Assembly (NCBI RefSeq): GCF_003334765.1
Contig: NZ_QOWT01000020.1
Direction: 5' to 3' (one strand)
Origin: Escherichia coli
GTDB lineage: Bacteria; Pseudomonadota; Gammaproteobacteria; Enterobacterales; Enterobacteriaceae
DNA: 64,000 nt
The notes beneath the pieces were generated by a model. That model searched no databases. It had not been told where the DNA came from and saw nothing but the letters and a program-made list of their open reading frames with translations. A program made the translations under genes and the position numbers. Positions within the stretch are counted from its first letter, which is position 1; the number at the start of each line of letters is the position of its first letter. Below are positions 950 to 26,267 of this stretch, piece by piece.

Positions 950-1057
950 TTTGCCATTTTTATACTTTTTTTACACCCCGCCCGCAGATTTTTGCGAAAT
1001 CTTTGCAGCCAGAATTCTACCCTTCCGGTATCACTTTTAGGCCACTGGAGGTGCACT
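950..1057 (+). promoter_or_regulatory. kdpFABC promoter with KdpE-binding T-rich repeats
   Basis: AT-rich region directly upstream of kdpF containing catttttatactttttttacaccccgcc, which resembles the KdpE operator; exact boundaries not determined. Confidence 0.45.
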
Positions 1058-1147
1058 GTGAGTGCAGGCGTGATAACCGGCGTATTGCTGGTGTTTTTAT
1101 TACTGGGTTATCTGGTTTATGCCCTGATCAATGCGGAGGCGTTCTGA
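1058..1147 (+). CDS. kdpF: K+-transporting ATPase small subunit KdpF (29 aa)
   Basis: GTG start; translation (M)[28 protein letters not shown]; stop overlaps the kdpA ATG by 1 nt. Confidence 0.85.
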
Positions 1148-2820
1148 TGGCTGCGCAAGGGTTCTTACTGATCGCCACGTTTTTACTGGTGTTAATGGTG
1201 CTGGCGCGTCCTTTAGGCAGCGGGCTGGCGCGGCTGATTAATGACATTCCTCTTCCCGGTACAACGGGCGTTGAGCGCGTACTTTTTCGCGCACTTGGCG
1301 TCTCTGACCGTGAGATGAACTGGAAGCAATATCTTTGTGCCATTCTCGGCCTGAACATGCTGGGGCTGGCGGTGCTGTTTTTTATGTTGCTCGGTCAGCA
1401 CTATCTGCCGCTTAATCCACAGCAGTTGCCAGGGCTGTCGTGGGATCTGGCGCTGAATACCGCCGTCAGCTTTGTCACCAATACCAACTGGCAATCTTAT
1501 AGCGGTGAAACCACGTTGAGCTATTTCAGCCAGATGGCGGGCTTAACGGTGCAAAACTTTCTTTCTGCCGCCAGCGGGATTGCGGTGATTTTTGCCCTCA
1601 TCCGTGCGTTTACCCGCCAGAGCATGAGCACGCTCGGGAATGCCTGGGTCGATCTGCTACGCATCACGTTATGGGTGCTAGTCCCTGTGGCGTTGTTGAT
1701 TGCACTGTTTTTTATTCAACAAGGTGCGCTGCAAAACTTTCTGCCTTATCAGGCTGTGAATACCGTTGAAGGAGCGCAACAGCTGTTACCCATGGGGCCT
1801 GTAGCTTCTCAGGAAGCGATCAAGATGCTCGGTACTAACGGCGGTGGCTTCTTTAATGCCAACTCGTCGCATCCGTTTGAAAACCCAACCGCACTGACCA
1901 ACTTCGTGCAGATGCTGGCGATCTTCTTGATCCCAACGGCGCTGTGCTTTGCCTTTGGTGAAGTGACGGGCGATCGCCGCCAGGGGCGCATGTTGCTGTG
2001 GGCGATGTCAGTGATTTTTGTCATCTGCGTAGGCGTGGTGATGTGGGCAGAAGTTCAGGGTAATCCTCATCTGCTGGCACTGGGCACGGACAGCAGCATC
2101 AATATGGAAGGTAAAGAGAGCCGTTTCGGCGTGCTGGTCAGTAGCCTGTTTGCGGTCGTGACGACGGCGGCTTCCTGTGGCGCGGTGATTGCGATGCATG
2201 ATTCGTTTACCGCTCTCGGTGGCATGGTGCCGATGTGGCTGATGCAAATTGGTGAAGTGGTGTTCGGCGGTGTCGGTTCTGGTCTTTACGGCATGATGCT
2301 GTTTGTCCTGCTGGCGGTGTTTATTGCCGGGCTGATGATTGGTCGTACACCGGAATATCTGGGTAAAAAAATCGACGTACGCGAGATGAAACTGACTGCA
2401 CTGGCAATTCTGGTTACCCCGACGCTGGTGCTGATGGGCGCGGCGTTGGCGATGATGACCGACGCCGGACGTAGCGCCATGCTCAACCCTGGCCCGCATG
2501 GTTTTAGCGAAGTGCTGTACGCCGTGTCATCCGCCGCTAACAACAACGGCAGCGCCTTTGCCGGATTAAGCGCCAACTCTCCGTTCTGGAACTGTTTACT
2601 GGCGTTCTGCATGTTTGTCGGTCGCTTCGGGGTGATTATCCCGGTGATGGCAATTGCCGGTTCGCTGGTGAGTAAAAAGAGCCAAGCCGCCAGCTCCGGC
2701 ACGCTGCCAACGCACGGCCCGCTGTTTGTTGGCCTGTTAATCGGCACCGTGTTGCTGGTTGGCGCACTGACCTTTATCCCTGCCCTGGCGCTTGGTCCGG
2801 TGGCGGAATATCTCTCCTGA
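1147..2820 (+). CDS. kdpA: K+-transporting ATPase subunit A (channel-like)
   Basis: 557-aa [21 protein letters not shown]...; start chosen at the ATG overlapping the kdpF stop rather than the track ORF start at 1003. Confidence 0.95.
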
Positions 2821-20138: not shown

Positions 20139-21545
20139 TCAGAAGATGGTGAATGGTGCGATTACCATAAATTTCACGTCACGCTCATCCTGGAAGATGT
20201 TGCCGTAACCACCGCCCCAGCTTGGGATGTCGGAGTGGTTGTCGTATTCGGTGAAATGCAGTTTGAACATCGTGCCTTTGGCGCGACCGTCCTGAATGGT
20301 ATAGACCGCATCCAGGCTGTAGGCAGACTCTTCAATAGTCCGGTTTTTGTCGTAGTACGCATCCGGATTGCTCTGCCAGGTCGCAGGTTTAGCATCCCAT
20401 GCGTAAACGTAGGAAGCGCCGATGGCGAAGCCTGGAAGATTCCAGTTTTTCAGGTCATACATCGCACCGAAGAAGACCGCTTTTTCGCCGTTGGCGTTGA
20501 AGTCAGAACGGTTATCCCACCAGATATCCAGGCGACCGTTTGAGGAAGCGTAGGTTGGAGTCATACGTTGCAGGAAGTATCCCTGCTGACCGTCAGCCTT
20601 AACCCAGGTGCCTTCGAGGCGCAAATCCACTACGTCAGCCGCCCAGTAACCAAAGGTCAACGCTTGCAGCCAGGCGGTGCCGTCATAAAGGTCGTTGACG
20701 CTGCGATCGTCAACTTTATCTCGGGTACCGTAGAACTGGTAGCTGGTGGTTAACGGGCTACCGGCGATATCAAATTTGTAGCTGGCTTTGGCAAAATATT
20801 GATCGATATACCCTTCCGCCTGACCAAATGCCGCTTCCAGTACGAAGTTATTTTTGAAGTCGTATTTCGCCCCAAAGGAGTGCAGATAATCAACTTTGGT
20901 GGTTTTATCGTTCTGATAAAACTCATCCATTTCCAGATGCCACGGCGCTTTGTATTCGTTGGTCCACATGTAGGAGAAACTCAACGCACCAGCATCGCCG
21001 TAATCAAAATTCGCCCCGGCTTCCGCCCCCTGATAAGTACCTGGCATAAAGCTCCAGTGCGGCGCTAACAGCGTTTGACCAGTTGGCTGAATGTAACCTG
21101 CCCTCGCCCAAACCGGACCGTATTTAAATTTGGCCGCAGCTTTATACAGGCTTATACCGCTTTTGTCGCCGGACCAGTCTTCGTCATAGGCTTTATTACT
21201 TTTTGAAAACGCGATTTCGTTCGGGTGGGAGCTGTCGCCGTTTTCCGCCATTTCAATCGCCGTAAACGCAGCAATATCAAGGCCGAACATATCAGCAGCA
21301 TAACCGGACTGAAAATCGAGGTTGGCATTCCAGGTGGAGTGAGAAAGGTTGGTTTTGTATTTGTCGCCGTCGGTAACATCTTTACGGTCGCGTTCACGCT
21401 GCCAGTAATAGATACCGCCGGTTAAGGTTGAATCGTCGATGAATCCTTCGGCGCGAGCCTCCGGCATTGCCATAAAGCCCGACATTGCTGTAACACCGGC
21501 GATAGCCAGCGCCAGCGTACTACGTTTGCCACTAAACGTACGCAT
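20139..21545 (-). CDS. chiP: Chitoporin (outer-membrane porin, OprD family)
   Basis: 468-aa [35 protein letters not shown]... with signal peptide and C-terminal aromatic residue typical of a beta-barrel. Confidence 0.93.
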
Positions 21546-21700
21546 GGGTTAATCCTCTTTGACGTATAAATTGCTGCACCAAAGGTGAACAGCGAAAAAA
21601 TAAAAATTAAAAAAGTAGCGTTGAGAAAAGTCTCGCTGACTACAGGAACAGACTATTTTTCGCGACGCGAATTATCAATCTCTTTCTGTAACCAGAATGT
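21546..21700 (-). promoter_or_regulatory. chiP 5' leader (known target region of the sRNA ChiX)
   Basis: Non-coding region directly upstream of the chiP ATG; assignment rests on published chiP regulation, the exact pairing site was not mapped here. Confidence 0.35.
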
Positions 21701-21894
21701 AAGAACATGAGCAACCGCACATATTTTGATGATTTTTGTTACAAGGCTTAAGTTTGCGGTTGAAAGGCTTGCAGAAGAATAAAAGCGTGAAATTCCAGCA
21801 AGATGAAAGCGGTTACATTTTATTTAATTATGTTTTGTTATTTTAAATTTATTTTATGGATAAATTGCGAAGCGGAATTAATTCGCGAAGAAAA

Positions 21895-21925
21895 GCAGAA
21901 AAAACGCCGCTGAACGCGGCGTTTT
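21895..21925 (-). terminator. Intrinsic terminator downstream of glnS (distal to the BIME)
   Basis: Perfect 10-bp stem aaaacgccgc/gcggcgtttt with a 5-nt loop; on the minus strand it is followed by a T-run (plus-strand agaaaaa). Confidence 0.6.
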
Positions 21926-21944
21926 GGATTGTTTGCTGTTTCTT

Positions 21945-22106
21945 GCCGGATGCGGCGTGAACGCCTTATCCGGCCTACAAAAGCACGCAAACTCAATATA
22001 TTGCAGAGATCATGTAGGCCTGATAAGCGTAGCGCATCAGGCAATTTAGCGTTTGAAACTGTTTGTCTGTTCCTTGCCGGATGCGACGTAAACGCCCCAT
22101 CCGGCA
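21945..22106. repeat. BIME cluster of three REP palindromes
   Basis: REPs at 21945-21978, 22014-22043 and 22076-22106 in alternating orientation (gccggatgcggcgtgaacgccttatccggcctac type). Confidence 0.85.
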
Positions 22107-22121
22107 TAGCGAAACTTAAAA

Positions 22122-23786
22122 TTACTCGCCTACTTTCGCCCAGGTATCACGCAGCCCAACGGTGCGGTTAAATACCGGTTTTTCCGCCGTAGAATGGCGG
22201 CTATCGAGGCAGAAGTAACCTTCACGCTCAAACTGGAATGCTTTACCCGCAACCGCATCTTTCAGCGACGGTTCAGCAAAGCCCTGTTTGATCACCAGCG
22301 ATTCCGGGTTAATCACCGACAGGAAATCATCCGCAGCACCTGGGTTAGGCACGCTGAACAGACGGTCATACAAACGGATTTCAACCGGCAGCGCATGTGC
22401 CGCGCTCACCCAGTGAATAACACCTTTGACTTTACGACCATCTGCCGGATCTTTGCTTAAGGTATCGGCGTCATAAGTACAGAAGATGGTGGTGATATTA
22501 CCTTCGGCATCTTTCTCGACGCGTTCTGCCTTAATCACATAAGCATTACGCAGACGCACTTCTTTACCCAGCACCAGACGTTTGTACTGCTTGTTAGCTT
22601 CTTCGCGGAAATCGGCGCGATCAATCCAAATCTCACCGCTAAACGGCACCTGACGGCTGCCCATTTCCGGTTTGTTCGGATGGTTCGGCATGGTAACCAT
22701 TTCGCCTTCGCCCTGATAGTTTTCGATAACCAGTTTCACCGGATCGATAACCGCCATTGCGCGCGGCGCATTTTCGTTGAGATCTTCACGGATGCAGGAT
22801 TCCAGCGACGCCATCTCAATGGTGTTGTCCTGCTTGGTCACGCCGATGCGTTTGCAGAACTCACGAATAGAAGCCGCAGTGTAACCACGACGACGCAGAC
22901 CGGAAATGGTCGGCATACGCGGGTCATCCCAGCCTTCAACGTGCTTGTCGGTCACCAGCAGGTTCAACTTACGCTTGGACATCACGGTGTATTCCAGATT
23001 CAGGCGCGAGAACTCATACTGGCGCGGGTGAACAGGAATCGTGATGTTGTCCAGTACCCAGTCGTACAGACGACGGTTGTCCTGGAACTCAAGCGTACAC
23101 AGAGAGTGCGTAATACCTTCCAGGGCATCGCTGATGCAGTGGGTGAAGTCGTACATCGGGTAGATGCACCACTTGTTGCCAGTCTGGTGGTGTTCAGCAA
23201 ATTTAATACGGTACAGCACCGGATCGCGCATCACGATAAACGGTGAAGCCATGTCGATTTTCGCACGCAGGCAGGCTTTACCTTCTTCAAAACCACCGGC
23301 ACGCATTTTTTCGAACAGCGCCAGGTTCTCTTCAACGCTGCGGTCGCGGTACGGGCTGTTTTTACCCGGTTGCGTCAGGGTGCCGCGGTATTCGCGGATC
23401 TGTTCCGGCGTCAGTTCATCAACGTACGCCAGGCCTTTATTGATCAGTTCGATCGCATAGGCGTGGAGCTGATCAAAATAATCGGAGGAGTAACGGACGT
23501 TACCAGACCAGTGAAAACCTAACCACTCTACGTCGTTTTTGATCGACTCAACATACTCGATATCTTCTTTTACCGGGTTAGTGTCGTCGAAACGCAGGTT
23601 GCACTGGCCTTTATAGTCCTGGGCGATCCCGAAGTTCAGGCAGATAGATTTCGCATGGCCAATATGCAGATAGCCATTCGGCTCCGGCGGGAAACGGGTG
23701 TGTACTGTGGTGTGCTTACCACTGGCCAGATCTTCATCGATGATCTGACGGATAAAGTTAGTCGGGCGGGCTTCTGCCTCACTCAT
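22122..23786 (-). CDS. glnS: Glutaminyl-tRNA synthetase
   Basis: 554-aa [27 protein letters not shown]... with class-I HIGH motif ([11 protein letters not shown]) and VMSKR. Confidence 0.97.
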
Positions 23787-26056: not shown

Positions 26057-26081
26057 AATTTAATTCGTATCGCAAATTAAA
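26057..26081. promoter_or_regulatory. NagC operator in the nagE-nagB divergent control region
   Basis: Palindrome aatttaattcgtatcgcaaattaaa (TT-N-CGTATCG-N-AA core). Confidence 0.5.
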
Positions 26082-26087
26082 CGCGTG

Positions 26088-26112
26088 TCTTTTGTGAGTT
26101 TTGTCACCAAAT
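26088..26112. promoter_or_regulatory. CRP site between nagE and nagB
   Basis: tgtga-gttttg-tcacc matches TGTGA-N6-TCACA. Confidence 0.55.
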
Positions 26113-26267
26113 ATCGTTATCATCACTCCCTTTTACTGGCTAAACCAGAAAACTTATTTTATCATTCAAAAAATCAGGTCGGATTGACGCCTGTCTGCGC
26201 AAATCCAGGTTACGCTTAAAGATGCCTAATCCGCCAACGGCTTACATTTTACTTATTGAGGTGAATA

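Follow-up and report, generated by a model that had tools for sequence, protein, structure and literature searches.

A probable control region of chiPQ, made up of promoter and leader, in the glnS-chiP gap of Escherichia coli

Described chitosugar systems and the glnS-chiP gap

Silencing of chiP by the small RNA ChiX (also referred to as MicM, SroB or RybC; RF00368) is known from Escherichia coli and Salmonella and comprises a 12-nt seed match, Hfq and a Rho terminator located downstream inside chiP. The locus considered in the current analysis represents the same system and no difference from it has been found, its sequence being identical to that of K-12 (100% identity to MG1655 over the 801-bp region 21400-22200). 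A further small RNA, ChiZ, has been described by Adams et al. 2021 (PMC7815308). The segment 21643..21545 is the sequence that was cloned as ChiZ and it ends at the mapped Term-seq 3' end. Since ChiZ has neither a family in Rfam nor an annotation in RefSeq, the gap between glnS and chiP looks empty, and RefSeq assigns no feature to 21546..21900.

The chbBCARFG locus of E. coli resembles chiP in several respects. They are members of the chitosugar regulon, and ChiX interacts with each of them. At both loci the upstream terminator is directly followed by a NagC operator, a putative one in the case of chiP, and the right halves of these operators are near-identical, the 13-mer TCTTCGCGAATTA being common to the distal site of chiP and the known distal NagC site of chbB. 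A CRP-type site of the form TGTG-N7-TCAT is situated downstream of the NagC operator at the two loci. At chb, however, the CAP site adjoins the distal operator and ChbR is required, whereas at chiP some 165 bp separate the CRP-like site from the putative distal operator, and no site for ChbR has been identified. The spacer between chbB and chbC of E. coli also contains a stretch, CCGTCAAAGAG (710-725 of the chb locus), that matches the ChiX seed and is the published decoy site.

Another related arrangement, the divergent control region of nagE-nagBACD (26059..26175), is encoded in the window, a term used here for the whole 64-kb stretch of DNA that was analysed. It has two NagC operators that enclose a CRP site, as is proposed for chiP:

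26059..26081: NagC operator of nagE-nagB
26153..26175: NagC operator of nagE-nagB, the CRP site lying between this operator and the preceding one

Repression of nagE-nagB by a NagC-mediated DNA loop has been described in published work. The operators of nagE-nagB are 94 bp apart and both of them are strong (22.1 and 18.0 bits); the proximal and putative distal operators of chiP, in contrast, have their centres 223 bp apart in E. coli, where the distal one is weak.

The gap itself is delimited by the following features:

22124..22122, minus strand: glnS stop codon
21925..21901, minus strand: hairpin of the glnS intrinsic terminator, AAAACGCCGCGTTCAGCGGCGTTTT, then a T-run; found by a terminator scan and forming the upstream edge of the gap
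21546..21900, 355 bp: intergenic gap between the T-run side of the glnS terminator and the chiP ATG
20139..21545, minus strand: chiP open reading frame, with its ATG at 21545

The stem of the terminator identified in the scan is 10 bp long and includes 6 G-C pairs, and the tail is rich in T. The gap has a G+C content of 34.4% as against 51.2% for the whole window, and just 0.6% of all 355-nt segments of the 64 kb are as AT-rich. No credible open reading frame has been found within 21546..21900, where the only candidates are an opposite-strand frame of 41 codons' product length (41 aa) and an 89-aa frame that crosses REP elements. The original prediction had described about 350 bp of AT-rich non-coding DNA situated between the glnS terminator and chiP, and it was right in composition as well as in position.

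The gap segment occurs as a single copy and is present in 5425 of the 5426 complete genomes of E. coli. The order of genes on the minus strand is nagE, glnS, chiP and chiQ, and the plus strand carries fur, uof and fldA. Two REP copies are located in 21926-22121, between the glnS stop codon and the terminator, with weak, sub-threshold matches to the Rfam families naRNA4 and ES036; the 801-bp query that includes these copies had about 39 matches per genome of E. coli. Rfam covariance models (riboswitch, leader, thermometer) gave no match within 21546..21866 at E-values up to 1, all the matches being REP-like or terminator-like and located at or beyond 21867. The distance between glnS and chiP is 385-565 bp in related genera as compared to 576 bp in K-12.

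Based on these comparisons and the evidence presented below, we consider the gap to be, with a probability of about 0.9, the region through which chiPQ is controlled at the transcriptional and post-transcriptional levels, consisting of a promoter plus a leader rather than one long leader. Its central elements, namely the ChiX-chiP pair, NagC, ChiZ and Hfq, are already published, and the region is an ordinary and not a new one. The regulatory content, which had earlier been assumed for the gap, stands as far as ChiX and NagC are concerned, sites for both having been mapped; ChiZ, the CRP-like site and the distal NagC-like operator had been missed. Within 355 bp the region would layer a sugar-sensing repressor, a probable catabolite activation, a constitutive silencing small RNA with Rho termination and a sponge RNA derived from the leader. 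The correct mapping matters mostly for annotation, as automated scans otherwise keep flagging an unexplained AT-rich gap.

Promoter, NagC operators and upstream DNA

Conservation was followed in 79 orthologous glnS-chiP regions of Enterobacteriaceae. The elements around the start of the leader are:

21678..21673, minus strand: -35 hexamer TTGATA, invariant in 79/79 orthologs
21676..21654, minus strand: proximal NagC operator GATAATTCGCGTCGCGAAAAATA, 23 bp, which occupies the whole spacer between the -35 and -10 hexamers and extends into both of them
21655..21650, minus strand: -10 hexamer TAGTCT, present in 68/79 orthologs, the remainder keeping TA...T
21643..21546, minus strand: chiP 5' leader, 98 nt, which together with the A of the ATG (21545) constitutes ChiZ

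Published primers and the conserved -35 and -10 hexamers place the transcription start of chiP at G21643, +/-1 nt. In the primer used for cloning the "entire 5' UTR" of chiP, the genomic portion starts with GTAGTCAGCG, and the ChiZ construct ran from TAGTCAGCG up to the ATG (Adams et al. 2021, PMC7815308). As these cloning primers and the conserved promoter put the start at 21643, the leader is 98 nt long; the other 257 bp of the gap are promoter and upstream DNA. With the start taken from the published primers, the arrangement of TTGATA, a 17-bp spacer, TAGTCT and 6 nt before G21643 is that of a sigma-70 promoter, which would fire from this G. A consensus promoter scan of the gap did not pick this promoter, because the -10 box fits the consensus at only 3 of 6 positions. 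An AT-rich, promoter-like TTAAAA-18-TAAAAT flagged by the scan at 21846..21817 has been rejected, since it lies in unconserved sequence, with 1.4 such matches expected by chance.

The proximal operator was scored with a matrix made from nine other published NagC sites, the chiP proximal site being left out. It reaches 22.1 bits, equal to the nagE operator and within the range of 17.0-23.4 bits that the proven NagC sites attain with the same matrix, and the next unrelated match in the 64 kb scores 13.3. The operator reads GATAA-TT-CGCGTCGCG-AA-AAATA, with TT/AA at +/-5,6; no other positions are invariant in NagC/Mlc operators (PMC4288165). A G or C at +/-11 is typical of NagC rather than Mlc sites, palindromy at this position not being required (PMC4288165), and the chiP operator has G at -11 and A at +11, as in high-affinity sites of the NagC type. 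The identical 23-mer is the known site "ybfM proximal" of Oberto 2010 (PMC3098098), and its sequence is nearly invariant across genera.

A review and a 2026 preprint both state that NagC represses chiP. This had also been given as established knowledge in the original prediction, and the NagC-type palindrome to be sought within 21600-21900 is the operator described above. For the action of NagC at this known site we draw on secondary sources for the footprints and on the sequence match. Without GlcNAc-6-P, NagC bound to the spacer-filling, high-affinity operator would block RNA polymerase. In six regions of Citrobacter the proximal operator is located about 240-246 bp from the ATG as compared to about 120 bp, and the leaders have an insertion of about 120 bp.

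Further upstream, the following features have been recognised:

21724..21703, minus strand: CRP-like site ATATGTGCGGTTGCTCATGTTC (TGTGC-N6-TCATG), centred at -70.5, or at -71.5 if the start is 21642
21743..21736, minus strand: conserved block TGTAACAA (TGTWACAA), at about -93 to -100 from the start
21744..21876, minus strand: AT-rich spacer with 32% G+C
21899..21877, minus strand: putative distal NagC-like operator TCTGCTTTTCTTCGCGAATTAAT, in which TT-N9-AA is kept

The pattern TGTG-N7-TCA of the CRP-like site is found in 79/79 orthologs at the same offset with a variable central 6 bp, and the half-sites in E. coli fit 7 of 10 positions. By itself the CRP pattern is not significant, with 1 match found as against 2.3 expected. 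The site resembles the chb CAP site TGTGA-AGAGGG-TCATA, and genomic SELEX has identified ybfM (chiP) among the targets of cAMP-CRP (PMC3105977). Judged from the sequence, the candidate site, a motif of the TGTGA-N6-TCACA type, is at the position of a class I activator (near -61.5, -71.5 or -82.5), its centre being one base off the canonical -71.5 given a start at 21643. The cAMP-CRP complex, for which binding is taken from the published SELEX, probably activates chiP from about -70.5 inside the putative loop discussed below; its effect in vivo is one that we infer. The TGTWACAA block is present in 71/79 orthologs, and its distance to the proximal operator is constant in 69. A reading of the E. 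coli sequence as a direct repeat of two TGT-N8-TCAT motifs has been dropped, the upstream TCAT being unconserved.

The distal NagC-like site scores 8.9 bits in E. coli, where other AT-rich positions of the gap score equally high. Its right half is conserved and its left half, which overlaps the T-tail of the glnS terminator, has decayed. The right half GCGAATTAAT has been identified in 68/79 orthologous regions, and together with TT-N9-AA in 67-68/79. In most genera the palindrome is complete (ATTCGCG(A/T)(C/T)GCGAATTAAT), and such full palindromes outside E. coli score 10-18 bits. The name "ybfM proximal" given to the other operator (PMC3098098) suggests that a distal site had been recognised by 2010.

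Between the TGTWACAA block and the distal site, column identity over the 79 orthologs is mostly 10-40%, and the segment 21744..21876 appears to be constrained in length rather than in sequence. Among the 68 regions that have the strict distal motif, the spacing of the two operators clusters near 201, 212, 223, 234 and 245 bp, intermediate values being absent. A period of 11.0 bp gives the best fit (R = 0.68 over the 68 regions, shared ancestry being uncorrected). When distinct spacing values only are considered, R is 0.56, which is reached by 0.1% of random sets (p ~0.001, ancestry ignored). Such steps of about 11 bp from genus to genus suggest a NagC repression loop with helical phasing, in which the weaker distal NagC-like operator probably cooperates with the proximal one by looping out the AT-rich spacer.

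Seven regions of Enterobacter and Lelliottia do not have the distal half-site GCGAATTAAT. They have another NagC-like 23-mer (CTTATTTTTTT.AAAAA.TTTC) that scores 11-16 bits and is situated 191-195 bp upstream of the proximal operator, i.e. about 30 bp closer and roughly on the same 11-bp ladder. This site may represent a turnover of operators.

Two other readings of the gap concern the extent of the transcript and the identity of the upstream regulator. All 355 bp might be transcribed as a long 5' UTR of chiP, whether from a promoter that adjoins the terminator of glnS or through transcription that continues from glnS itself; the original prediction had spoken in this sense of a "long untranslated region" of about 350 nt. 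The promoter-like match at 21846..21817 would agree with it, as would RNAs of about 200-500 nt from the chiP region on northern blots, which were called likely degradation or read-through products (PMC7815308). That single match is, however, no better than chance and is unconserved, a strong glnS terminator stands before the gap, and the published "entire 5' UTR" constructs begin at 21643. The block 21678..21650, which comprises the -35, the operator and the -10, is nearly invariant in the 79 genomes, whereas 21876..21744 is unconserved. With the start at -98 and the upstream 250 bp unconserved apart from islands of protein-binding type, a 5' UTR of over 300 nt is not found here, and its existence is highly improbable. 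The segment 21743..21703 might in turn be bound by a regulator other than CRP, for example the chitobiose activator ChbR, which would tie the transcription of chiP to chitosugars. Such a regulator would account for a TGTWACAA block that is conserved yet is no full CRP site, and for the imperfect fit (only 7/10 positions) of the E. coli half-sites, and NagC, CAP and ChbR sites are combined at the chb promoter. Binding of cAMP-CRP at ybfM in SELEX speaks for CRP instead, and a 6-bp core that varies between two conserved half-sites, at class I distance, is the signature of CRP; by eye, the chb region shares no motif with chiP beyond the NagC and CAP sites. We consider a regulator other than CRP quite unlikely.

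As to the spacer, NagC could act through the proximal operator alone, the distal site of E. coli being a decayed relic and the spacer being neutral or bound by H-NS, with no loop formed. An operator within the promoter spacer is able to repress unaided, the E. coli distal site has 8.9 bits as against 17-23 for the proven sites with a terminator tail for its left half, and the Enterobacter and Lelliottia group is devoid of the GCGAATTAAT motif. Against this reading, the right half-site and TT-N9-AA are kept in 67-68 of the 79 regions, and the distances fall into bands about 11 bp apart with nothing between them. The same Enterobacter and Lelliottia regions have a different NagC-like site near the same ladder, and the label "ybfM proximal" implies a known distal partner. 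NagC operators also come in pairs at the promoters of nagE-nagB and chb, the former with a CRP site inside the pair. We regard repression through the proximal operator alone as somewhat less likely than not. The spacer as a length-constrained repression loop of about 220 bp, which encloses the CRP site and holds both operators on the same face of the helix as the intervening sequence drifts, is put forward as a tentative proposal from comparative evidence, and in this complete form it is unlikely.

If the loop reading is true, the distal operator of E. coli is merged with the U-tract of the terminator, and the occupancy of NagC and the termination of glnS could affect each other. The stepping by 11 bp, if real, would be a clean natural case of helical phasing that is conserved without conservation of the sequence. 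It is the sole point that goes beyond the sources, a possible added detail of a known system, and it would be new unless phasing has already been described by Plumbridge et al. 2014.

The chiP leader, ChiX pairing and ChiZ

The leader is 93-123 nt long across orthologs. In E. coli it is composed, in the 5' to 3' direction, of:

21643..21615, minus strand: 5'-terminal leader hairpin (predicted fold)
21614..21595, minus strand: U/A-rich tract UUUUUUAAUUUUUAUUUUUU, 20 nt, 0% G+C, with a conserved U-run
21593..21573, minus strand: second, G+C-rich hairpin (predicted fold), just upstream of the ChiX site
21564..21553, minus strand: ChiX pairing site CGUCAAAGAGGA, which includes the Shine-Dalgarno sequence AGAGGA (21558..21553), 7 nt before the ATG

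Pairing of ChiX in the 5' leader of chiP had been given as established in the original prediction, and the complementarity looked for near the ribosome-binding site is present as a perfect duplex of 12 bp. The single-stranded ChiX seed UCCUCUUUGACG forms 12/12 Watson-Crick pairs with CGUCAAAGAGGA at -21.0 kcal/mol, and the duplex extends over AGAGGA and so overlaps the ribosome-binding site. A duplex scan restricted to the seed was carried out over 4660 segments from both strands of the 64-kb window (mean -8.0, sd 2.5 kcal/mol), and the chiP site is the second of these, about 5 sd below the mean. The top match, 1260..1239 on the minus strand (-21.8 kcal/mol), is interrupted and antisense to a 605-aa open reading frame (1003..2820), and has been treated as a chance match. 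Duplexes of full-length ChiX with the whole gap were not used, as they were long and unrealistic and 42 of 500 shuffled sequences gave the like.

The chiX gene is located outside the 64-kb window. The ChiX sequence, which matches the Rfam family sroB (RF00368) with 82 bits, is located between ybaK and ybaP and occurs once in 5423 of the 5426 genomes of E. coli. Pairing of ChiX with chiP has been shown by compensatory mutations in literature cited in PMC7815308. According to the published mechanism, ChiX would pair with the 12 nt over the Shine-Dalgarno sequence and block translation, by which the Rho terminator inside chiP would be exposed.

Folding of the leader predicts two hairpins. The closing stem of the first hairpin has compensatory changes in 4 of 5 pairs among 49 leaders, and a hairpin is predicted at or near the 5' end in most of 66 distinct leader folds, those of Kluyvera being different. 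This closing stem is all that RNAalifold recovered from a sequence-only alignment, and the orthologous leaders were folded one by one after RNAalifold had given little. The second hairpin is predicted at the same place in most orthologs with different stems (GCUG/CAGC, CGCC/GGCG, CGCGG/CCGCG). In many genera it is followed by a U-run (e.g. GGCG-UUUUUAAAAG), and the tail in E. coli is AAUUUAUA. The second hairpin with its U-run resembles an intrinsic terminator, or else a module that binds Hfq, placed just before the ChiX site. Compared with shuffled sequence, the fold of the E. coli leader is no more stable (z = -1.3), and because of this value no claim of unusual structure is made for it.

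Crosslink mutations have been identified by Hfq CLIP-seq in a UA-rich sequence of chiP in Salmonella (PMC5207318). The tract 21614..21595 is a probable contact of Hfq, the exact site being inferred. The leader would then present, in order, the 5' hairpin, the U/A tract in contact with Hfq, the second hairpin and the ribosome-binding site.

Term-seq maps the 3' end of ChiZ to the A of the ATG (K-12 position 708334), and ChiZ gives a band of about 90 nt on northern blots (PMC7815308). Among the Term-seq supplementary data covered, no 3' end has been found for the glnS terminator. When ChiX is low, the leader, as published, accumulates also as the ChiZ of about 90 nt, which titrates ChiX.

The motif GUCAAAGAGGA in the ChiX target is invariant across most genera. 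In six Kosakonia regions and in Leclercia sp. UBA7405 it is altered to CGUCCAGAAGGA, CGUCUAGAAGGA, CGUCAAUAAGGA or CGUCAAUGAGGA. A metagenome scan for a ChiX variant that compensates the Kosakonia change gave at least 120 chance matches; among those listed, no more than 4 are followed by a T-run and a ChiX-like one is absent. On the strength of the altered motif, either ChiX would have co-varied in Kosakonia and Leclercia or the silencing would have been weakened there. Against ChiX of the E. coli type, the Kosakonia targets have two mismatches and one wobble. The altered targets are situated about 8-20 nt upstream of each chiP ATG.
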